The notes: generated by a model from the sequence alone, not told the origin. A DNA stretch of 64,000 nt from Myxococcota bacterium (GCA_963674735.2 CAXXQS010000002.1:736001-800000); one strand, 5' to 3'; positions 18,686 to 30,263 are shown, numbered from the stretch's first letter. Made by a program: numbers and translations.

Positions 18686-20743
18686 TCATTCAAGATGCAC
18701 GGGGGCTTGCCACACTCCGCTGTTGCGTGTGAAATTCCAGCGCTCGGTTTGTCCTTTCTCGGTCAGGTCCACCTGGAAGGGACCGAACGAGGGCGTATCC
18801 TCGTTGTCGATATAGATGTTGATCGTCGCGGTCGCTTCTTCTTTCCCGAGGCTGGTCAAGCACAGGTAATTGAGCGGATCGTTCACGGCATACGGGCAAT
18901 TCTCATCGAAATTGAGACGGAACTCGTAAGTGCCATCAGGCGCGTAAGCGTGGGTGACGGTCTCGGTCGTACACACCGAGGCGGAACCACAACCCATCAG
19001 GTTGATGGTGCCATAAGCGCTTGGAACCTGGCAGGTTCCCGTGCTGGCCGCGCAAACCTCCTCATTGTAAAGGTTCCCGAGTGGGATGACATACATCAAA
19101 TCCACATCGCTCAAAGCGCTGATTCCGCTATAACTCGCCTGAATACGCATGGTGGACAATCCGGCCGTGGCGGTTACCTCGACATTCTTCGGATCCGATT
19201 CATCCCCCTGCTCATCGGTCACCACCAACGAAATCAGGTAATTGCCCGCCACATCAAAGAGCAATGAAACCGTTGGCGAGGTCGTGTCGGGAATCAGGTT
19301 GGCCACCGACGCAGGCGGTTTGGTGAGATACCATTGGAAGGTCAGATTACCCGAATTTCCATCGGGATCCCGACTGATGGCCCCATAGAACGTCTTGGTG
19401 GAACCCACCGGAATTTCGAGTGGCGCACCGATGTCGGCACCGTTTTCCACCTGAGAGACACGCGCTTCGGGTTTTTCGTTGCGCGCACTCCCCTCCGCCA
19501 GAATGGGGAAGTAGAAACTGGTTCCGTTGAAATCGGTATCGACCCGCAGCTCGGCGTCGTAGTTTTCAACGGCACTGGGATTGAAGGTCAACTGAAATTC
19601 GTGATTGGCTCCGGCCGCCAAAGCAACCGGGTCCATGCCACCGGCCGATGAAGTGAAGATGGTCTGCCAGTTGTCAATGCCGGTGATCCGTAAAGAGGTG
19701 ATATTGATTTCGCCCACATCTCCTTTGTTGGAGAGCCGGACATCCAAGGGTTTCGCACCAAAAAGTGGAACCGATCCGAAGTTCAGGACGGGTGGGGTCA
19801 TGTAAATCTGGCCGATCACAGCATCGCCGCTGATCGGGACTTCGAGCACCTGACCGGCACTGTCGAGATTGGTATGGTATTCGACAACCAATTTATCGCT
19901 GTATTCACCCGCCGTTATGGGATCGAACCAGATGGTGAACGGCGACGAGGAACTCGCCGCGATGGTCAGCGGCTCGTCCTCGCTGATTTCCAATTCGTGC
20001 TCATAACTAAACGGCTGAGCGCCGTTGGATTGCATGTATACTTGGGTCACGATGATCTGGCTCGATCCGGTGCCCAGGTTGCCGATTTTAAGGCGCTTCT
20101 GGGCCGCGTGGGTACCCAAAGCTTTCTCTTCGAATTCCACCGCATCGGGATCCGAACCGATCTCGGCCTCCCCGATTTCCTTAACGGCATCGCCCGCTAA
20201 ATTCAACGTCGCCTCAGGCATGTTATCGCTATCATTCGAAATACGTAGAACTCCGGGATTCTCTCCCAGGACGATGGGCTGGAAACGGATTTTGAACGTG
20301 AAACTCTGACCCGGTTGAATGGTCGCTTCCATATAGCCGTCGAGCGACCAGGGGTTGTCCACTTGCGGTTCAGTGAAGGTCGCCTCGTAGAGGTGCATCG
20401 CCTGATTACCATCGTTGTAAATCACCACATCGGCAAAGGCCGAGTCGACCAGTTGCACTTCGCCGAAGTCCAACGTTCCGTCGGGGGTCATGCGAAAGAT
20501 GCGGGTGGGGTTGGGGTCATCGCCATCGGCCGGCAAATCGCCATCGATGGGAATACACACCTGATCCGCACCGCAAACCTCGCCGCTTGGACAATTGGAA
20601 TCCGTGGTGCAAGGGGTATCGCCATCCGCCCCATCCCCGTCGGGAGCGGTCGAGCTGCCGCCGCCGCAACCGGCCATCCATAGAGCGGCAAACGCCAAAG
20701 CCATCCAGATTAACGGACGAATACGGGTTTCGTGAGACGTCAT
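18686..20743 (-). CDS. Surface lipoprotein with Cys-rich motif, three ASH/choice-of-anchor-D-like Ig domains, a PKD-like domain and a C-terminal domain
   Basis: Lipobox LWMAGC; CTTDSNCPSGEVC; repeated LDFG/LNFG...N.G...F.P...G Ig pattern; SRDPDG..LTFQW.L..PP.S and AGNYLISLVVTD PKD pattern. Confidence 0.75.
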   Translation of the reverse strand: MTSHETRIRPLIWMALAFAALWMAGCGGGSSTAPDGDGADGDTPCTTDSNCPSGEVCGADQVCIPIDGDLPADGDDPNPTRIFRMTPDGTLDFGEVQLVDSAFADVVIYNDGNQAMHLYEATFTEPQVDNPWSLDGYMEATIQPGQSFTFKIRFQPIVLGENPGVLRISNDSDNMPEATLNLAGDAVKEIGEAEIGSDPDAVEFEEKALGTHAAQKRLKIGNLGTGSSQIIVTQVYMQSNGAQPFSYEHELEISEDEPLTIAASSSSPFTIWFDPITAGEYSDKLVVEYHTNLDSAGQVLEVPISGDAVIGQIYMTPPVLNFGSVPLFGAKPLDVRLSNKGDVGEINITSLRITGIDNWQTIFTSSAGGMDPVALAAGANHEFQLTFNPSAVENYDAELRVDTDFNGTSFYFPILAEGSARNEKPEARVSQVENGADIGAPLEIPVGSTKTFYGAISRDPDGNSGNLTFQWYLTKPPASVANLIPDTTSPTVSLLFDVAGNYLISLVVTDEQGDESDPKNVEVTATAGLSTMRIQASYSGISALSDVDLMYVIPLGNLYNEEVCAASTGTCQVPSAYGTINLMGCGSASVCTTETVTHAYAPDGTYEFRLNFDENCPYAVNDPLNYLCLTSLGKEEATATINIYIDNEDTPSFGPFQVDLTEKGQTERWNFTRNSGVWQAPVHLE

Positions 20744-20997
20744 CGAACATCACCTTTCCGTTAGAACACACTGATCGTGGCGGTCACTACCTTGACCTAT
20801 GATCATAGTATGTGCAACGGCGCGTGTCAATTTCGTTCCAGCGGTAATCGATCGAAACAAAAACCCGGGTTTGATCTCGCCGTCGGATCGGGTTCTATTG
20901 ACTTTGCCCGTCACGTAAGACACAATCGGAGCTGTATCAGGAAAGCTATTCCATATCCAGCGCCTTTCCGGGCAACCCACAAGCGGAGCTTTGCAAT

Positions 20998-23094
20998 TTG
21001 ACATCACCGCGCGCCTTCATTTCTCACCTCGATCGCTTTCAGGACACCGCCCGACGGTTGGGGGCGCGAGTGGTTCTTCCACGTCCGGACGGCAGCCTGC
21101 TGGCCGTATGGACACATGACGATCAACGTGCCGAGTTGATTTGGCAACCACGCGCAATTGCGGGGGAAATAACCGATGATCGTCTGGCAGGCGAGTTCGT
21201 CGTTCGGGGTTTGGACGATGAACACATCAAACAAGCTTTGGATGTCTTCGCCGACCTTCAAGCGATGCCCAATCCTTTTCCGCCGCCTATTTCCGACGAC
21301 CCGAAGCAGCCGATACAGCTCAACCGCTGGTTTGTTCACGCTCATTTAACCTCGCATCTGGAAGTAGGACGTAGCGTGTGGGGACCGTTCCGACTGGCCA
21401 AAGTAAGCGAAAACGGCCCTCAGATCATACGCTTGCATTTCGAGGGAACCCAACCTCCCCTGGTAGTCGAAATCGGAAGTCTGCAAGCCGTCGAGAACGA
21501 CCTTGCAACGAATGGGTGGCACCCCGCCCCACCGCTGGCGCTACGCGTCTGCTCGGTTCCCGATACCGCCTCGCTAAACTCACCTCTGGCGCTTAAGGTA
21601 TTGGATTATCTCCGCTTCGCCCTCGCACGCAGTTTCACACCCGATCAACCGCTACAAACGCTCGGAACGGACGATCTTCCACCGGAAACGTCCCAAACCA
21701 AGACAAGCAAGCAGCAAGCCGAATTCGATCCACGCGATGAAATCGACCCCGGTCGATTTTTTATCGGTTGGTTGCGCCCAGGTGCAACCGAGGGAATTAG
21801 CACGCTTTTCGACGATCCCGACTTGGCGATTATCCTTTATGGAGCCAATTCCTGCTGCATGAAACATCCAGTCATCGACATCGACGATCCGGGCGCAGCC
21901 GGTGCCGCCCGTTTCGATGCGCTGGCTTTGACCCTGCCGCAAAGACGGGTGGCGGTGAGCAACATGCACGAGTTGGACCTGATCCTCGGCGACGAAACCG
22001 CTTTTCGTCAGGCCCTGGAGGATGCAATCGCCAACTCGAAAGCTAGAGCCGTCGTTGTGATCGCAACTTGTGTCGTGGATATGATCGGATCGGACTTGCA
22101 CGGTATTGTGAAAATGGCTCAGGATCGCAGCGACAAGCCGGTTTTATTGTTCGAAACCCGGCCCCAGTTTGCCGAAGCCGATTATTTGGGCGATATCTGG
22201 TCAACCTTATTCGAGATTGCCGATCCTCGGGAAGTTCCGAAGAAGCGGCACATCAACGTGATCGGTCTAGCGGCCCCCGCAAGCCGTAGCGCCCGAACTC
22301 TGAGGCGGGAATTGGCCGAACTGGACCTGACGGTCAACCACTTTTTTTTCCCTTCCTTCCGATTGCAGGCGCTCAGCGAGTTTTACCGGGCGGAAACATC
22401 GATCATCGCCGACACGCTGGCCACGCGCCTCGAATTCGCCACGATCGCAACCCGACTCCCCGAAACCCATCGCCATGCTCTCGATCCGCCCTTCGGCCTA
22501 GCGGCCAGCCTGAAATTCTATCGCTACATCGCAGAGTTGTGCGGAATCGAGGAAACGAAATACAAAACCGCAGTGACGCGTATCTGGAAAGCACAAGCGA
22601 CGGAATGGGAACATCTCCAATCCCGCGCCAAATCTTTTCGCGTCCTGCTGGTAATATCGCCGGAGGATGCCGACTTCCTGCTGGACCCCGGTTCTCGTTA
22701 CGGGTTGGACCTTCCCGCCATCCTGCTTGAAATGGGCTTTTCTTTGCAGATTCTGTGTCTGCCGCAAGAGCGTCCTTCGGATGCGCTAGCCCTGCGCGAT
22801 CGCCTCGCGCAAACGATCTCAGTTCGTGTCCCAAACACGGCAAACCTGTGTTTCGACGTTCTGGCCGATGTTTCCACCTTGCCGGAATGGTTGGCCAAAT
22901 CCGACGCCTCCCTGTTATTCAGCGAATTTCCGGGAGATACCCGCGCCCTTCAAGCCGGGCTGTTGCCCTTGACGCCGCATCACTTCGAGCCGGGATTGGC
23001 CGGTGCACGCCGGACTTTGAGGCGGCTGGTGCGTCTGGCCGAAGCCTCCAAGCGGCTGCTAGGAAAAGATGTCAAAGGAGGAAAGCGCTCATGA
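20998..23094 (+). CDS. Nitrogenase component-1-like oxidoreductase subunit A with N-terminal extension
   Basis: IILYGANSCC...SNMHELDLILGDE..F..AL...VVVIATCVVDMIGSDL..IV and INVIG match the NifD/E/K/BchN fold pattern (T.l.E.d.i.Gge; TC...IGdD; iNiiG). TTG start after GGAG. Confidence 0.75.
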   Translation: MTSPRAFISHLDRFQDTARRLGARVVLPRPDGSLLAVWTHDDQRAELIWQPRAIAGEITDDRLAGEFVVRGLDDEHIKQALDVFADLQAMPNPFPPPISDDPKQPIQLNRWFVHAHLTSHLEVGRSVWGPFRLAKVSENGPQIIRLHFEGTQPPLVVEIGSLQAVENDLATNGWHPAPPLALRVCSVPDTASLNSPLALKVLDYLRFALARSFTPDQPLQTLGTDDLPPETSQTKTSKQQAEFDPRDEIDPGRFFIGWLRPGATEGISTLFDDPDLAIILYGANSCCMKHPVIDIDDPGAAGAARFDALALTLPQRRVAVSNMHELDLILGDETAFRQALEDAIANSKARAVVVIATCVVDMIGSDLHGIVKMAQDRSDKPVLLFETRPQFAEADYLGDIWSTLFEIADPREVPKKRHINVIGLAAPASRSARTLRRELAELDLTVNHFFFPSFRLQALSEFYRAETSIIADTLATRLEFATIATRLPETHRHALDPPFGLAASLKFYRYIAELCGIEETKYKTAVTRIWKAQATEWEHLQSRAKSFRVLLVISPEDADFLLDPGSRYGLDLPAILLEMGFSLQILCLPQERPSDALALRDRLAQTISVRVPNTANLCFDVLADVSTLPEWLAKSDASLLFSEFPGDTRALQAGLLPLTPHHFEPGLAGARRTLRRLVRLAEASKRLLGKDVKGGKRS

Positions 23095-24380
23095 AAATCA
23101 CGCCTTACTTCCTATCCGGTATATATCTGACATTGGCGGCACGACCGGACGTCGTCGCCCTGATCGACGCCCCTCGTTGCGAACAAGACGTGGGCGGGCG
23201 GGGCGGTTTCTTGCAAGACCGCAGGGGAACGCTTTTTGGCGACGGTGCCTACGCACGCAATCGACGCGTCTATTCGCCCGGCCACTGGATGCACCCGGGG
23301 GCGAGTTCCTCTGCCGAAGACGACCTGCTGAAGACTCTCGACAGCATCGCCGAGCGACATCCGAACAACCCCATCCTGCTCGCACGCGGATACCTGTCGG
23401 CACTGGCCAACACCGATCTGGCCGGGTTGGCGAGCGAGTGGTCGGAACGGACAGGTCACCGAATCGCAACGGTGTCCCAGGGGTCGCTGGACGATGATTG
23501 GCGCGATGGCGCAGCTGCCGCGCAACTCGCACTCCTGAGCATCTACGAAAATGACGACGCCCCGCTCCGTCCCTTGATTACAGGTTGGGGACCCATGCGC
23601 ATGGAAGGCGACGAAATTGGCAACCTGATTGAATTGCAAAGGCTTTTCGCCTTGGCCACCGGGACGGATGCGGGTTTTCTGCTTGACGGTCAACTAAACG
23701 GCGCCTGGCATCGGCCCGACGCTCCGCATATCGTACTGGGTGAGACCGACCCGGAAAACGCGATTGATTCCCTGCAACTTCCCGCCCTACCTTACGGCTT
23801 GGGGGCAACGGACGCCTTCGTACGAAAGCTGGCGGAACATCGTCATGAATTCTCGAACGATCCAGCCACGTTCGATGTATCCGTCTGGGATCGTGAACGC
23901 CAAGAAACCCAAGAGCAACTCTTGCCGCTGGCTATCCGGCAACTGGCCGGACGCGGAGCGGCCGTGGTCGCGGATCCGGCCCGCGCACGGGGACTGACGC
24001 ATGCCTTGCGAGAACTGGGGCTGGAAGTCGCCCAGGTCTACCTGTTGCGAAGGATGGATGCCGTTTGTCCGGAAGCGGACGAACTCAGCGCCCTTGGAGT
24101 GCAGGTTCTGCGCGACTCGGATTATTACGATGCCCGCGCGACGCTTTTCGAGGCCGCCGAGGACGGTGCCATCGAGGTCATCGTGGGAGCGGGAATTTTT
24201 CTGGATGCGACCCGCGAAGCCGGGCTGGCTTACGTTGAAGAAGGATTTCCTTGTTATCTCGACCACTTCATCATGCCGACGCCCACAATGGGAACTTACG
24301 GACTGTTGTATCTCGCCGAACGGCTGGACCGAGCATTAGCCCAACGCGCCCACCGCAACCGGAATCAAACTCGCGGTTGA
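23091..24380 (+). CDS. Nitrogenase component-1-like oxidoreductase subunit B
   Basis: ATG 23091 overlaps the upstream stop (ATGA) after AAGGAGG. GIYLTLAARPDVVALIDAPRC, GNLIELQRL, LPYGL.ATD.F, L.GRGAAV..DP, ALRELGLEV, GFP...PTMG..G...LAERL (NifK/N/BchB-like C-terminus). Confidence 0.75.
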   Translation: MKITPYFLSGIYLTLAARPDVVALIDAPRCEQDVGGRGGFLQDRRGTLFGDGAYARNRRVYSPGHWMHPGASSSAEDDLLKTLDSIAERHPNNPILLARGYLSALANTDLAGLASEWSERTGHRIATVSQGSLDDDWRDGAAAAQLALLSIYENDDAPLRPLITGWGPMRMEGDEIGNLIELQRLFALATGTDAGFLLDGQLNGAWHRPDAPHIVLGETDPENAIDSLQLPALPYGLGATDAFVRKLAEHRHEFSNDPATFDVSVWDRERQETQEQLLPLAIRQLAGRGAAVVADPARARGLTHALRELGLEVAQVYLLRRMDAVCPEADELSALGVQVLRDSDYYDARATLFEAAEDGAIEVIVGAGIFLDATREAGLAYVEEGFPCYLDHFIMPTPTMGTYGLLYLAERLDRALAQRAHRNRNQTRG

Positions 24381-24384
24381 CTTT

Positions 24385-24951
24385 CTACATCCTTTTCCCG
24401 CTTTCGGCCTCATGTTCGCGAATCAACCGACCCGGCAAACGGAAAAGCAAAAGACCATAGCTCAGAATCACGAACAGCAGCAAACCGACCCACGGCCACA
24501 CCATCCAGGACGGCAAGCTGTCGAATTGACCCGTAGCCAGTCCGACGGTGGCATGCGCAATACCCGCAAACAATAAATTGCAGCATAGCGCCATCGAGAT
24601 CATCATTTCAGTAACCACGCGAAAATACGCATCCTGCTTAACAGCCGGTAACTTTAAAAAAAGCTCTTTGCGTGGCAGGTTGACCCATTCGGGATGACGG
24701 GCGACCATCCAGCGGACAAGCCATGTCAGGCCATAAAGGAGAAGACTCATCAGCCAGGGAAACAATACGAAAAGGGCAATCAACTCAAAGCCCTTATTCG
24801 TCCAGCGGTCGGGTTCATTATGGAAATCGAAATGAATCGGCACGCGCTCGGGTAGAACATCCCACACTCGCCAGGCAAACCAGGGCAGATAGACCAAAAG
24901 CAGTGCATTTCCGACATGATAGAGGTTGAGGCGTAAACGGACGGACAACAT
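24385..24951 (-). CDS. DUF1648 (SdpI-like) membrane protein
   Basis: LPERVPIHFD....PDRW..K followed by transmembrane helices and a WVNLP.KE motif. Confidence 0.8.
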   Translation of the reverse strand: MLSVRLRLNLYHVGNALLLVYLPWFAWRVWDVLPERVPIHFDFHNEPDRWTNKGFELIALFVLFPWLMSLLLYGLTWLVRWMVARHPEWVNLPRKELFLKLPAVKQDAYFRVVTEMMISMALCCNLLFAGIAHATVGLATGQFDSLPSWMVWPWVGLLLFVILSYGLLLFRLPGRLIREHEAESGKRM

Positions 24952-25184
24952 ACCGGTTTCCTTTCGTTTTCCTAACCACAACAATCGCTTTCACGATCAA
25001 ACACAAGCAGATAGTTCTTGCTTCGCAATGTACACGGCTGTGAAAGAAAAGGCAACCAAGGCCTTGTTTTTTCAGAAACTTTCCGCTTTATACGATGTCT
25101 TTCCGTCTTTTGGTCACCCGTGAAAACGAATCTGCCAGCAAAAGACCTTGTGATCGGAGGCCGTCGCGGCTACAATGCCGCCCC

Positions 25185-27075: not shown

Positions 27076-28284
27076 TCAAGACAGACGGCTTCGGTACTCC
27101 TCGATGACTCCTTGTTTACTAATCGTATGGCGAGCCAGACGTTTCCGAACGGCCAGATCGTCCCAGGCAGGCTGCACTCCGATTTCACGGGCCGCTTTAG
27201 CCGCATCCTGGCGCGCGCTGTCTTTGACCTTCTCCCCCATGTGACAGTCGTCACCCATGGTGACCAAGAGTGGACGCTGCCGACGCGTAGCGGTTCGATT
27301 GAGACGCTGGACCGCACTGATCAGAAATTCCGTGTAGGCACGCGATTGCGGGTTCCACACCTCAAAGCCATCGACATCGTAATCGGCCAGCAAAATCGGC
27401 CAAAACTGCTCCGGATGCGGCACGATGATTCCCGCCCCACAGCTGCGTGCTTCTTCGATTATTTCGTTGACCTCGTAAAAATGTCGAGGATTGAATGCCC
27501 GTTTCACTTCAACCTTGATCGCGCGCAGCAACAGTTGAGCGTGGTCGATAAAACGGTCGGCATAGACGTTGCGAAGGCCATCGAAAAATTCACGCACCAA
27601 TTTATTGCGCAACATTTCAGGCGCAGCGCGCGACTCATTCCGCTCGATGAGTTGGATCAGCTTCCTTGAATAGATTTGCACAAAGCGAACCAGAACCGGA
27701 TCCGCCGATGATTCTTTCACCGCCCGTTCAAGACGATCGGCAAAAGCCGAGTCAAGAATGGAGGCGAGAAATTCAAGAAGCTGATTCGACCGGTAGTTGA
27801 AGGTATGGTCAATCATGCCTTTCAGGATGTCGGCCTGCTGCAAACGCTCGGTCTTGAAATGCATGAGCAACTGAACCTTCAAGCGAAACGCCTTGGCATA
27901 ACAATCGACTTCAACACCGGAATAGCCCTGGCGGTCGAGAATGCGGTTGTGTTGAGTCGGCACGATAAACTGGCACTCGGCATGGGGAAAGGTGGCCGCG
28001 AGACGCTGTTCGATCAGGTTCATGGGTACGAACTCGGGATGCCAATGCAGCCCCATCACCACTTGCTCACCGGAAAGAACGCGATGAGGTTGGACAATCC
28101 GTTGTTCCTGCTCGGGGGTCAACGTGGTCGACGTCACGGTGTCGTAAATAGCCTGATCCTCTTCGGTGACCTCTTCAGAGATAAAGGCAAGTTCCGACAC
28201 GCTTTGCGGATACAAACCGTTGCGAGGATTCACCGTCACATGGATTTCCGGTCGACCGAAACTCGGGTCATCGTGCTTAGCCAT
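27076..28284 (-). CDS. PHP-fold-like metal-dependent phosphoesterase, hypothetical
   Basis: LHWHPE, PTQHN, GVEVD, IVPHP, DGFEVWN, TMGDDCH resemble the PHP motifs HxH, D/H-N, GxE, HP, GxEV, GSDxH. Start ATG 28284 after AGGAG. Confidence 0.65.
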   Translation of the reverse strand: MAKHDDPSFGRPEIHVTVNPRNGLYPQSVSELAFISEEVTEEDQAIYDTVTSTTLTPEQEQRIVQPHRVLSGEQVVMGLHWHPEFVPMNLIEQRLAATFPHAECQFIVPTQHNRILDRQGYSGVEVDCYAKAFRLKVQLLMHFKTERLQQADILKGMIDHTFNYRSNQLLEFLASILDSAFADRLERAVKESSADPVLVRFVQIYSRKLIQLIERNESRAAPEMLRNKLVREFFDGLRNVYADRFIDHAQLLLRAIKVEVKRAFNPRHFYEVNEIIEEARSCGAGIIVPHPEQFWPILLADYDVDGFEVWNPQSRAYTEFLISAVQRLNRTATRRQRPLLVTMGDDCHMGEKVKDSARQDAAKAAREIGVQPAWDDLAVRKRLARHTISKQGVIEEYRSRLS

Positions 28285-28528
28285 GGCATCTCCTGGAACC
28301 CAGCCATACAGTCGATGGATACGGCGCAACTCCGGACCGCATACGCGAATCAAGATGGGGTTAACCGGGTTTCTGTTCTTCCAAATGATTAAACACTTGG
28401 AATGTTAGGCGGCTATTAATTCTTTCTTGGCCCCATCGTATCATGAATGAGGGAGGAATCGGAAGCGATGCATCTAAATGCTTATTTCAGCCTTATTTTC
28501 CGGGATAATCTCGCCGCAATGAATCGCT

Positions 28529-28876
28529 TCAATCTCGCCTGTTCGCCAAGATTTCTTCGATGGCACGTCCGTCTTCCTGCTCCTCCACCCCTTGTTTGAC
28601 GGCCTTGTAATGAGCCATCAATGTTTCGGCAAATTCGGACTGGGCCTGCTGCGTTTGCGAGCCCGTCACCATCGGACGTTGAAGCATGAGACGCAGATAG
28701 CTTTCGTAGGGTTTTTCGGAGGTATACATTTTAAGCGTGTAACGCGCCACGAACGATCCGCAAGCGGCGCACTCGACAAACACTTCCACATCCTCGCCGG
28801 GCATGATGCGCATGTAATTCTTGAGTTCGACGCCGTCGCAGTTCGGGCAATGCTCCAGTCGGGATGTGCCGCGCAT
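28529..28876 (-). CDS. Small zinc-ribbon hypothetical protein
   Basis: CPNC...ECAAC..FVARY; AAGGAGG ribosome-binding site before ATG 28876. Confidence 0.75.
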   Translation of the reverse strand: MRGTSRLEHCPNCDGVELKNYMRIMPGEDVEVFVECAACGSFVARYTLKMYTSEKPYESYLRLMLQRPMVTGSQTQQAQSEFAETLMAHYKAVKQGVEEQEDGRAIEEILANRRD

Positions 28877-28889
28877 GGTCAGTCCTCCT

Positions 28890-30263
28890 TTACGCACCGA
28901 ACACCACCACGCAATAATACACGTAGAACAGGGAGAGCACCACCCCGAAAAGCGTCATCAACAATCCGACTTTAAGCATGTCGGAGACCGCGATCATGTC
29001 GGAACCGTAAGCGATGGCGTTGGGCGGAGTCGAGACGGGCAGAGCCATGCCGTAGGAGGCCGACAAGGCCGCCACGGCAGCGAAGTAGATGGGATCGGCC
29101 CCGCTGAGCGAGAGCGCGATAGGGGCGACCAGATTGGCGCTGGCGGTGTGGCTCATGAAGGTAGCCAGCAAAGCCGTGAGGGTTCCCATGATCAAACCGG
29201 CCATCAGCGGAGACAGGGCATTGAGGTTCAGTAGTTCCACCACCGACCGGCTCAGTCCCGTTTCTTGAATGGCCGCGCCCAGCGCAATCCCTCCACCGAT
29301 CAACAGCAGAATCTCCCAAGGCAGCTCCCTCAGATCACGGCGATTGGACAAACCCGCCACGGAAAAAACCAACACCGGCAACATGGCCACGACCGCCGAG
29401 GGAATCCCATGCCAGAAATCGGTGAGCCACAGAAGCACCGTCAAAGCAAAGGTGGTGTAAACGATTCCATGGCGGCTGGCCGCCCCCTCCTGCGCAGTGG
29501 AAATCCGCAAGTCACCCGCTTCTTTTCCGGGTGGAAAGAACAGCAACAGCGCCGCCCAGCACAAAATCAGCAAGACCAACATGGGCGGCACGCCATACAG
29601 CACCCACTGCACAAACGAGACGTTGATTCCACGATCGGCCAAAAGGCCGATGGCAATGGCATTGGGAGGCGTGCCGATGGGCGTCCCCACCCCGCCGATA
29701 TTGGCGCTGAACGGAATGCCCAGCATGAGCGCGCGTGCAAAAGGCGACCCTTTGGGAAGCTTGCGTACCACCGGCAACATGGCCGCCACCATGATGGCGG
29801 TGGTCGCCGTGTTGGACATCCACATCGACAAGAAGGCCGTCAGTCCCATAATACCCGCCAGCACCACCGATGGACGCGACCCGAGACGGGTGAGCACGGA
29901 ATTGGCGAAACTGACATCCAGATTGTATTTGGCAAAGATGCGTGCAAGAAAAAAGCCGCCGAACATCAGAATCACCACCGGACTAGCAAACGGCGACATA
30001 AACAAGCTGTAACGGTACGGTTCGAAGCCGAACAGATGGGCCAGCGGATCGAGCAGAAGCTGAATGGCTACCGCACCCATCAGGGCGGTGACGTAAAGCG
30101 GAATGATTTCGGTGATCCAGAAGAAAACAACCGTCGTGAAGACAGCGGCGACCAGACGAGCCGGGGTCGGCAACGCCCCACTGATGGCGAAAACCGCCAG
30201 CGCCAGAATCAGCCCGACTACGGAAAAAAGGACGTTGTGCGTCACCGATTTCGGTTTGCGCAT
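28890..30263 (-). CDS. DASS/SLC13 family divalent anion:Na+ symporter
   Basis: WITEIIPLYVTAL, LSMWMSNTATT, GGVGTPIGTPPNAIA, FMSHTA, LPVSTPPNAIAYG. Confidence 0.93.
   Translation of the reverse strand: MRKPKSVTHNVLFSVVGLILALAVFAISGALPTPARLVAAVFTTVVFFWITEIIPLYVTALMGAVAIQLLLDPLAHLFGFEPYRYSLFMSPFASPVVILMFGGFFLARIFAKYNLDVSFANSVLTRLGSRPSVVLAGIMGLTAFLSMWMSNTATTAIMVAAMLPVVRKLPKGSPFARALMLGIPFSANIGGVGTPIGTPPNAIAIGLLADRGINVSFVQWVLYGVPPMLVLLILCWAALLLFFPPGKEAGDLRISTAQEGAASRHGIVYTTFALTVLLWLTDFWHGIPSAVVAMLPVLVFSVAGLSNRRDLRELPWEILLLIGGGIALGAAIQETGLSRSVVELLNLNALSPLMAGLIMGTLTALLATFMSHTASANLVAPIALSLSGADPIYFAAVAALSASYGMALPVSTPPNAIAYGSDMIAVSDMLKVGLLMTLFGVVLSLFYVYYCVVVFGA

Follow-up and report, generated by a model that had tools for sequence, protein, structure and literature searches.

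A nitrogenase-like gene pair without an adjacent reductase gene in a Myxococcota genome, and its relation to the Group VI-type systems

Two co-oriented genes, here named A3 and B3, occupy positions 20998-24380 of a 64-kb stretch of DNA from a Myxococcota bacterium (the window, which is the whole stretch analyzed, G000:C2:736001-800000; the genome, G000, comprises 5.26 Mb in three contigs and is 94% complete). Their products have the fold of nitrogenase component 1, the genes are intact and translationally coupled, and they fall inside a clade together with the two operons of the same genome in which a gene for a NifH-like reductase (H) accompanies paralogues of both subunits (A and B). Nitrogenase-like (NFL) genes of this kind are referred to below as NflH, NflD and NflK, which correspond to H, A and B, respectively. 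We examined the pair, its relatives and their genomic neighborhoods, starting from a first-pass annotation that had described it as an orphan heterodimer with no reductase partner nearby.

The gene pair, its fold and its conserved cysteines

The features of the pair are as follows, in window coordinates.
20998..23094, plus strand: A3, the NflD-like subunit, 698 residues, TTG start (PF00148 at 85 bits, AlphaFold model and Foldseek)
23091..24380, plus strand: B3, the NflK-like subunit, 429 residues, ATG start (PF00148 at 67.4 bits)
23091..23094, plus strand: ATGA start/stop overlap that couples A3 and B3, read from the sequence
23075..23081, plus strand: Shine-Dalgarno sequence AAGGAGG of B3, 9 nucleotides 5' of its ATG
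20984..20987, plus strand: possible weak Shine-Dalgarno sequence GGAG of A3, 10 nucleotides 5' of the TTG (a sequence reading alone)
20998..21672, plus strand: two-lobed alpha+beta domain at the N-terminus of A3 (residues 1-225), confidently modeled; a linker of low confidence then extends to about residue 262
21853..21855, plus strand: codon of A3 Cys286 (YGANSCC), candidate cluster ligand by family conservation
22069..22071, plus strand: codon of A3 Cys358 (IATCVVDMIGSDL), candidate cluster ligand by family conservation
23178..23180, plus strand: codon of B3 Cys30 (IDAPRC), candidate cluster ligand by family conservation
23214..23219, plus strand: codons of B3 Gln42-Asp43, which are His-Asp in the family (B-family comparison)

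Coordinates and sequence agree with the earlier description of two open reading frames (ORFs) of 698 and 429 residues, coupled through ATGA and with AAGGAGG ahead of the second, and the motifs cited then are all present, namely YGANSCC and IATCVVDMIGSDL in subunit A, and IDAPRC and ARGYLSALANTDL in subunit B. The genes on either side, at 18686-20743 (a PKD/Ig lipoprotein) and 24385-24984 (a DUF1648 protein), lie on the opposite strand and leave the pair as the self-contained two-gene unit that had been described.

Both products exceed the gathering cut-off of PF00148 (28.6 bits), A3 with 85 bits over residues 317-644 and B3 with 67.4 bits over residues 233-416. The structural model, which covers A3 of the two subunits (AlphaFold, predicted local distance difference test (pLDDT) 87.6), displays the three-domain Rossmann-like fold of component-1 proteins, and the top Foldseek matches obtained with it were NifN, NifE, NifD, NifK and MarD chains (E values of 1e-15 to 1e-13, target template-modeling scores of 0.52-0.69). 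Compared with the PDB, a profile of the A family matched MarD best (110.6 bits), followed by a NifEN fusion (109.1 bits), and the best PDB profile for B3 alone was that of MarDK (27.4 bits). The assignment of a nitrogenase fold is thus borne out for both subunits by the PF00148 hidden Markov model (HMM), and for A also by the model and the family profile.

The individual NCBIfam families do not claim either protein. A3 and B3 stay below every cut-off, with the top models being NifEN for A3 (39.4 bits against 1229) and VnfK for B3 (14.2 against 873.95); neither nifD (18 against 653.55) nor nifK (13.3 against 427.3) is reached, and the same is true of NifE (34.5 against 505.1), NifN (18.5 against 326.8), BchN (25 against 419.95), BchB (26 against 490.35) and CfbD (28.3 against 268.4). 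The NifE and NifEN matches of A3 are confined to some 70 residues that surround the TC...GxD motif. A search of the ESM Atlas with the whole of A3 gave generic PF00148 clusters only (up to 0.86), and one with residues 1-225 gave nothing usable.

In a 152-row alignment of the A family, cysteine is present in more than 25% of the rows at only three positions, those of Cys286 (136 of the 139 non-gap rows), Cys358 (147 of 148) and 681 (85 of the 152 rows, with Ala in A3). Hence, no conserved ligand of the FeMo-cofactor type is seen, in line with the first-pass observation that motifs for such ligands are lacking; the cysteines conserved throughout the alignment are Cys286 and Cys358 only. The family profile aligns Cys286 with HSPIGC and Cys358 with TSCPTAIIGDD of MarD (chains 9d9u and 9fmg), and we take the two to be the positions of Cys62 and Cys154 of NifD in nitrogenase numbering. 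Among the 16 sequences of the B family, Cys30, His42 and Asp43 are each found in 15. Two cysteines from A and one from B, as first proposed for the ligand count, is accordingly what the family-wide conservation displays. A prediction of the complex of A3 residues 272-698, B3 and a 4Fe-4S cluster returned a score of 0.06 (mark 0.32), which is neutral on binding, and gave no contacts.

Ahead of the component-1 core, A3 contains an N-terminal domain that is predicted to form two alpha+beta lobes, at about residues 8-90 and 105-215 (pLDDT 85.7, with most of residues 10-220 exceeding 90). The N-terminal 270 residues of A match no Pfam family, a Foldseek search with the model of this domain gave nothing at E≤0.001, and a wide VIA search gave at best Z 5.5 (KA1-type) and about 4.4 for LysR-effector- or lipid-binding-like structures, all under the noise guide, a result that is not proof of a new fold. 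The domain is found in A1, A2 and A3 only within the genome. Across the family, more than 150 residues precede the core in 118 of the 146 non-fused representatives, and the second lobe is matched by 23 of the 50 shorter N-termini at E<1e-3. In 6 of the 152 representatives (P0058, P0046, P0101, P0103, P0123 and P0131) NifH is fused N-terminally to the D-like protein; because P0058 (958 residues) carries NifH, the N-terminal domain and the core in series, in that order, the N-terminal domain is distinct from NifH. We also considered whether the domain is a decayed NifH and rejected this candidate, as the hhalign match concerned lay in columns filled only by NifH-fused rows, in which A3 is all gaps. 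NifH-A fusions further make up two tandem sets on an Elusimicrobia contig. The texts of Meheust et al. 2020 (bioRxiv 10.1101/765248) and North & Shafaat 2026 (PMC13474568) mention neither the N-terminal domain of D nor H-D fusions; their supplements may show some.

Paralogous operons, reductases and the wider clade

A search of the whole genome with PF00142 gave 14 matches at E≤0.01, of which two were strong (273 and 266 bits). As the first-pass annotation had stated for NifH-like genes, none lies within the window, the nearest being a weak 43-bit match at C2:848916-849617. The PF00142 and PF00148 searches together define two complete operons. One of these, at C2:235827-240053, consists of H1 (271 residues), A1 (an ORF of 726 residues, or 702 from the likely start) and B1 (432 residues); H1 lies about 520 kb from A3/B3 on the same contig, and A1 and B1 share a 4-nucleotide overlap (238755-238758) just as A3 and B3 do. 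The other, at C1:1576938-1581329, consists of H2, A2 (731 residues) and B2 (442 residues). H1 and H2 are 45% identical, pass PF00142 and both retain the P-loop, the switch motifs and both cluster cysteines; from their sequences, they look like competent reductases. No NCBIfam cut-off is reached by H1 (CfbC, 284.6 bits against 402; nifH, 277.7 against 394.35; BchL, 195.9 against 345.15; BchX, 190 against 331.2), and the scores of H2 are similar.

A3 is 33% identical to A1 and 21% to A2, and B3 is 43% identical to B1 and 25% to B2. In the phylogenetic trees, A3 and A1 share one 23-row clade, which holds none of the sampled relatives (support 99 in the Shimodaira-Hasegawa-type approximate likelihood ratio test, SH-aLRT), B3 is the sister of B1 (SH-aLRT 100), and A2 clusters with orthologues from two relatives, G003 and G004. 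By these comparisons A3/B3 is the third D/K paralogue pair of the genome, closest to A1/B1. Since the two NifH-like proteins of the genome sit in paralogous operons with long A and B subunits, a cognate-type reductase acting in trans is the simple reading, and the pair loses the unusual character that it had been given as an orphan with a distant or different donor. The first-pass annotation had counted placement in a characterized clade, with a cognate NifH-like gene elsewhere in the genome, as evidence against its reading; such genes are indeed found elsewhere, though the clade itself is uncharacterized.

Most relatives keep the reductase gene close at hand. Among 23 A-B sets with flanking sequence, 20 carry H either as a neighbor (H-A-B, A-B-H or divergently transcribed) or as a fusion, and three have neither, namely the window pair and the following two (20 kb examined each).
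G001:C79:10200-13714: L116, a reductase-less A-B pair in a genome of the same taxonomic family
L124, 8715-13606 of a 218-kb metagenome contig: an A-B-A' block, found via P0006
A complete operon is present in G001 as well, and the A of that operon is the sister of the reductase-less one (support 96). The L124 block adjoins a U32 peptidase-like gene and FeoB. Recurrent reductase-less A-B sets are not described in the texts of Meheust et al. 2020 or North & Shafaat 2026, whose supplements may show some. Sharing of a reductase between pairs appears plausible from these arrangements.

A profile of the three A proteins, compared with 1.84 billion cluster representatives, had 1460 matches at E≤0.001, of which 335 also reached E≤1e-30, with a median length of 653 residues among the best 150 matches. 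A word-index protein search with A3 gave no match beyond A3 itself, and alignments of B against genome and metagenome contigs gave no confirmed relative. At E≤1e-5, A-family matches occur in 13 of 41 relatives (G000 included), among them all five other genomes of the same taxonomic family; in a sample of 301 Myxococcota genomes, for which up to three candidates were scored per genome, a match at E≤1e-40 is present in 37 genomes and in 29 of the 209 genera. Some of the Myxococcota family matches contain one or two in-frame stops, mostly TGA (G268:C4, G268:C161, G028:C100, G063:C44 and G263:C241), possibly from read-through of a neighboring frame, broken genes or recoding.

The limits of the clade were drawn from 80 NifH-bearing loci, obtained by a scan of named genomes with H1 and H2, whose ORFs were scored with an HMM of the A core. 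Family members score at least 225 bits, one ORF is intermediate at 142, and all remaining nitrogenase-like ORFs score at most 123. Above the gap are two proteins of the Elusimicrobia metagenome-assembled genome (MAG) RBG_16_66_12 (446 and 273 bits), one of a Myxococcales MAG (365), one of an unclassified bacterium, L047 (311), and those of relatives. The A tree separates 85 family rows from 3 outgroup rows (support 99). In a FastTree of 94 NifH sequences, H1 and H2 belong to a 19-row set (98, Shimodaira-Hasegawa-like), with the other 75 rows outside; the set also holds both NifH-like proteins of the Elusimicrobia MAG, that of the Myxococcales MAG, those of relatives and the H domains fused to A, and this tree has long branches, with one long Intestinimonas row inside the set. 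The trees contain neither Group V sequences nor those of Meheust et al. themselves. By the A-core scores and the A tree, the three pairs of the genome form a discrete clade with the Elusimicrobia and Myxococcales-MAG loci. Beyond this clade, a distant nitrogenase-like pair was seen at 7927-10610 of L115 (G023:C51), with 153 bits for the A-core HMM and 93 for the B HMM; no NifH-like gene was found within its 19 kb.

According to the text of Meheust et al. 2020, Group VI of the NFL systems comprises Elusimicrobia lineages IV and V, two Gracilibacteria and fourteen Myxococcales genomes. The traits given in that text and in North & Shafaat 2026 are multiple copies within a genome, the lack of NifB, no more than four of the six P-cluster cysteines and radical-SAM neighbors, the number of radical-SAM genes beside the loci varying from 0 to 13 in the former account; the latter text regards gene context as of little help for this group and makes no mention of Myxococcales. 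In the present case NifB (TIGR01290) was not found in the 94%-complete genome (best 22.6 bits against a cut-off of 343.65), the conserved cysteines are few and FeMo-cofactor ligands are lacking, and the D and K subunits cluster with the Elusimicrobia loci. No radical-SAM gene is found among the neighbors of A3/B3 or of the two complete operons, while the Elusimicrobia and L047 loci do have them; this does not exclude membership in Group VI, because Meheust et al. 2020 allows zero such genes. From these sequence traits, the clade fits the published, uncharacterized Group VI NFL systems.

By Pfam, the surroundings of the pair in the window consist of CvpA, methyltransferase, PKD/Ig lipoprotein, DUF1648, RluA, RimK-like ATP-grasp and DASS transporter genes, all unrelated to A3/B3. 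A scan for promoters and terminators around the pair gave nothing better than shuffled sequence, a promoter-like site at 20898-20926 included. Three sequencing runs of one study contain the DNA, with no RNA run listed. Reads of two runs show zero variant positions; the first run matches the whole stretch identically and may be its source, and the second matches in identical fragments. The GC content at third codon positions (GC3) is 0.62 in A3 and 0.65 in B3, against 0.60-0.69 in the neighboring genes. The complete operons are richer in GC than A3/B3 (GC3 0.68-0.75; GC 0.62 against a genome mean of 0.56), a gap that may stem from different residence times or expression levels. Two ORFs without a Pfam family, of 425 residues (27076-28353, minus strand) and 122 residues (28529-28897, minus strand), adjoin the RimK-like ATP-grasp and DASS transporter genes, and the shorter one has two CxxC pairs.

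Association with His-Xaa-Ser and radical-SAM genes

The Myxococcota NFL loci that we examined are bare three-gene operons in varied contexts, with no tetrapyrrole gene or radical-SAM gene alongside. The only recurring neighbors in an all-against-all clustering were PAS/Cache sensor kinases and HD-type response regulators, at three loci. Sensor histidine kinases (multi-PAS/Cache) and response regulators (HD, HD-GYP-like or HDOD) flank both complete operons of the window's genome and one operon of G004, at the positions below.
L122 3158-9765; L123 4579-6927 and 11546-14539; L109 13294-16202: kinase and regulator flanks of NFL operons

Elsewhere in the clade the context is richer. The first-pass annotation had placed similar pairs beside radical-SAM genes of the His-Xaa-Ser (HXS) system, and this holds for an Elusimicrobia contig, which carries HxsB, HxsA4, an HxsC4-like radical-SAM gene and NflHDK together, but not for the window's genome, in which they are unlinked. 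The co-directional order on that contig is HxsB (521.8 bits, cut-off 370), HxsA4 (112.8 bits, cut-off 55), the HxsC4-like radical-SAM gene, NflH-NflD-NflK, six radical-SAM genes, and two sets of an NflH~D fusion with NflK. The contig (L032 7995-15334; L132 is G301:C186:50000-69999) thus has three NFL sets, two with the NifH-NflD fusion, and seven to eight radical-SAM genes among and around them, with HxsB-HxsA4 heading the cluster; the first fusion has its reading frame divided between two ORFs, possibly because of a frameshift or an error in assembly. On the contig of the unclassified bacterium L047, a distance of about 8 kb separates HxsB (487.6 bits) and HxsA4 from the radical-SAM and NFL genes. 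For most radical-SAM proteins encoded beside the Elusimicrobia and L047 NFL genes the best NCBIfam match is HxsC4, HxsC or a peptide-maturase model (PapB, HxsB), and one protein of the Elusimicrobia cluster is HemN/HemZ-like (134 bits against a cut-off of 380). The HxsC and HxsC4 cut-offs were reached by none of the radical-SAM proteins tested.

The window's genome itself encodes HXS proteins above the cut-offs, namely HxsB (554.3 bits against 370), an HxsD-like protein (74 against 41) and HxsA4 (84.2 against 55). It has two His-Xaa-Ser repeat genes, each with about 17 H-x-S repeats and ending in W, and 19 HxsC4-like matches, one trio of which is 28-35% identical to the Elusimicrobia trio. A canonical-looking operon of an HxsD-like gene, HxsB, a His-Xaa-Ser repeat gene and a radical-SAM gene lies at G000:C1:2646512-2649588 (L127 6512-9585), and a solitary second HxsA4 gene at G000:C2:1270943-1271458 (L126 8943-9458). 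Four HxsC4-like radical-SAM genes below the cut-off, one encoding a double-domain protein of 593 residues, form a cluster at G000:C1:1873584-1879639 (L125 7588-13637) that adjoins an ApbE gene and the gene of a large TPR-CHAT protein.

In the 301-genome sample, HxsA4 is present in 36 of the 37 NFL-positive genomes and in 68 of the 264 NFL-negative ones, the sole NFL-positive genome without it being G005, which is 79% complete. The HxsC4-like double radical-SAM protein is distributed similarly (34 of 37 against 51 of 264). Because the genomes are related, Fisher p-values exaggerate the strength of such associations. The anaerobe marker NrdD, a weak control that is not matched in prevalence, is present in 9 of the 301 genomes, 4 of the 37 NFL-positive and 5 of the 264 NFL-negative ones. 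HxsA4 is also above its cut-off in all three further NFL-bearing genomes that were examined outside the phylum. The characterized HXS system, as presented in the text of Li et al. 2026 (Nat Commun), is an anti-phage system of E. coli in which the repeat protein HxsA is matured by the radical-SAM proteins HxsB and HxsC, together with HxsD; it has four genes and five repeats and is reported to be 99.7% from Pseudomonadota. Nitrogenase and NifH have zero mentions in that paper, and the texts of Meheust et al. 2020 and North & Shafaat 2026 do not mention a linkage of Group VI with Hxs genes, which their supplements may show in part.

Proposed function, alternatives and known systems

On the sequence evidence, we consider it reasonably probable that A3B3 works as an additional catalytic component within a Group VI-type NFL system, with a simple interfacial iron-sulfur cluster, and that it is served in trans by H1 or H2. 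The two subunits would form a heterodimer or heterotetramer that lacks both a P-cluster and a FeMo-cofactor-like cofactor and carries, at the interface of A and B, a single simple cluster of the [4Fe-4S] type. The cluster would be held by A-Cys286, A-Cys358, B-Cys30 and a fourth ligand, for which B-Asp43 is a candidate. Low-potential electrons would reach it in an ATP-dependent manner from either H1 or H2, the NifH-like proteins of the two complete operons, by analogy with NifEN, which borrows NifH. H1 would be the likelier donor because A3/B3 is closest to A1/B1. The substrate of A3B3 is expected to differ from that of A1B1 because two otherwise conserved histidines are replaced, and the N-terminal two-lobed domain of A may be a family-wide accessory module that binds a substrate, a carrier or a partner.

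Several points weigh against this proposal and its extension to the HXS system. B3 is the sole one of the 16 B sequences with Gln at position 42, which is His elsewhere, A3 has Tyr at position 281, where 80% of the family has His, and the terminal branch of B3 is about 1.5 times that of B1 (1.10 against 0.75); the replaced histidines and the longer B3 branch fit relaxed constraint as well as a new specificity. The conserved cysteines would account for three ligands of the cluster, the fourth being possibly a residue other than cysteine, and the printed profile-to-PDB alignments for B begin past residue 60, beyond B-Cys30, whose equivalence to a ligand position of NifK or BchB is putative. Group VI as a whole is without a characterized member in the account of North & Shafaat 2026. 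As for the HXS system, the radical-SAM proteins adjacent to NFL genes score far below the cut-offs (HxsC4, 99-166 bits against 500; HxsC, 68-125 against 267.9), no Hxs gene is found beside any of the three NFL loci in the window's genome, and HxsA4 is far wider than the NFL family (104 against 37 of the 301 genomes). The link therefore consists of neighborhood in two non-Myxococcota contigs and of co-occurrence among related, non-independent genomes.

The same replacements, H281Y in A and H42Q in B, and the longer branch of B3 would suit a drifting duplicate that has lost its reductase gene and is itself being lost or is already non-catalytic, for example as a regulatory or structural remnant. 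Such decay would also account for the want of a NifH-like gene or remnant within the window and of a close orthologue, the nearest representatives being at most 34% identical and the word-index search having returned A3 alone. It is nonetheless improbable in our estimation, given that the ORFs are intact over 3.4 kb with the ATGA coupling and the strong Shine-Dalgarno sequence preserved, and that all three conserved cysteines are retained. Furthermore, of the 35 columns with at least 80% conservation across the family, A3 keeps 29 and the H-linked paralogues A1 and A2 keep 30 each, the terminal branch of A3 equals that of A1 (1.12 against 1.11), and the GC3 values of the pair resemble those of its neighbors, as expected of a long-resident pair that is still open. 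The layout, a D/K-type pair without its own H and apart from an H-D-K operon, mirrors that of nifEN, and with A1/B1 as closest paralogues and NifEN and NifE as the top, far sub-threshold, NCBIfam matches of A3, the pair might be pictured as a scaffold or maturase that prepares a cofactor or substrate for A1B1 with the same NifH-like protein. We regard this as the most improbable of the readings, since NifB was not found and nothing points to a complex cluster in need of assembly, the matches in question (34-39 bits against cut-offs of 505 and 1229) cover about 70 residues, and the other reductase-less set whose place in the tree is resolved, that of G001, is a recent copy of a full operon and not an ancient lineage. 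Nor does it seem at all likely that a ferredoxin, a flavodoxin or another partner unrelated to NifH is the donor. The sole point in favor is the absence of an adjacent NifH-like gene, to which a docking site on the modeled N-terminal domain could be added, but A1 and A2 share this domain and yet adjoin NifH-like genes, 20 of the 23 family sets have an adjacent or fused H, and some members are H-A fusions, one of them ordered H, N-terminal domain, core. To our knowledge, all characterized members of the nitrogenase superfamily need a NifH-type reductase.

The best substrate lead for A3B3 may be the product of a type-4 His-Xaa-Ser/radical-SAM system, and on the present data the Hxs association offers what appears to be a more specific lead than the tetrapyrrole proposal. 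In its full form, which we put forward as a speculation and hold to be unlikely, the Group VI-type enzymes, A3B3 included, would be not tetrapyrrole reductases but ATP-driven low-potential reductases of the type-4 His-Xaa-Ser system, acting on radical-SAM-modified HxsA4 or a product derived from it; A3B3 would then be an extra module of altered specificity that shares one NflH, with binding of the peptide or carrier falling to the N-terminal domain of NflD. The competing idea, that enzymes of the clade act on a tetrapyrrole, reducing it on the way to a novel cofactor, and that the Hxs association is incidental, goes back to the text of Meheust et al. 2020, which invokes the position of NifH next to Groups IV and V and radical-SAM neighbors with B12-binding or HemN_C domains. 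It gains from the sub-threshold HemN/HemZ-like protein of the Elusimicrobia cluster (134 bits against 380), and from the characterized simple-cluster relatives DPOR, COR and CfbCD, all of which reduce tetrapyrroles according to the text of PMC13474568. Yet no tetrapyrrole gene or radical-SAM gene lies beside the Myxococcota loci examined, HxsB and HxsA4 pass curated cut-offs in that very Elusimicrobia cluster, whose other radical-SAM proteins best match HxsC4/HxsC or peptide-maturase models, and HxsA4 accompanies the NFL genes in 36 of 37 Myxococcota genomes. The tetrapyrrole idea is weakened by these findings, and we now hold it to be unlikely.

The A3/B3 locus does not represent a system of a new kind; it is of value for the handles that it provides on a known, uncharacterized kind, Group VI being the only branch of the nitrogenase superfamily without a characterized member. 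These include: 1) A near-complete three-contig genome with three D/K pairs and two reductases, which suits mix-and-match tests of reductase sharing. 2) The N-terminal domain of NflD, which is confidently predicted and has no clear structural match. 3) The natural NflH-NflD fusions, which argue for a retained dependence on the reductase. 4) The association with HxsB and HxsA4, a testable alternative to the tetrapyrrole hypothesis in which HxsA4 is a defined candidate substrate. If the HXS-linked function were true, these enzymes would be the first nitrogenase relatives in protein or peptide maturation, and the characterized cousin of their partner system serves in anti-phage defense.

Among the known systems, DPOR (BchNB/ChlNB, Group V) resembles A3B3 as proposed here, being a heteromeric component-1 pair free of a complex cofactor and reliant on a NifH-like reductase. 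Its single interfacial [4Fe-4S] cluster is bound asymmetrically, by cysteines of N and one residue of B, with Asp as the B ligand (as given in the text of PMC13474568). The A family differs in having two rather than three conserved cysteines and an extra N-terminal region of 270 residues, the B family has Cys where the B ligand of DPOR is Asp, if the putative correspondence of positions holds, and the BchN and BchB models score no more than 25 and 26 bits against 420 and 490. MarDK (Group IV-C; PDB 9fmg and 9d9u) is the top profile-to-PDB match for both the A family and B3. The methylthio-alkane reductase carries a P-cluster and an L-like cluster (text of PMC13474568), whereas the A and B families keep three cysteines in all and the genome lacks NifB. 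NifEN, which gives the best (sub-threshold) sequence-model and Foldseek matches of A3, is likewise a D/K-type pair that lacks a reductase gene of its own, and it relies on the NifH belonging to a paralogous system; in contrast, the genome of A3/B3 has no NifB and no L-cluster chemistry for such a pair to serve.

The published HXS system has no nitrogenase-like component and five repeats, as against about 17 repeats and the A4 model here, and no part of it lies in the window; the likeness is that the window's genome has HxsB, HxsD-like and HxsA4 proteins and that, in two contigs, HxsB-HxsA4 clusters include or adjoin NFL genes of the clade. Group VI NflHDK remains the closest comparison. A3/B3 departs from it in having no adjacent reductase gene, and the examined Myxococcota loci in having no radical-SAM neighbors. 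The likenesses are very divergent D and K subunits with at most four of the six P-cluster cysteine positions, no NifB, several copies per genome, a NifH-like partner in the genome with both cluster cysteines, the reported presence of the group in Myxococcales, and a radical-SAM-rich Elusimicrobia locus in the same clade.

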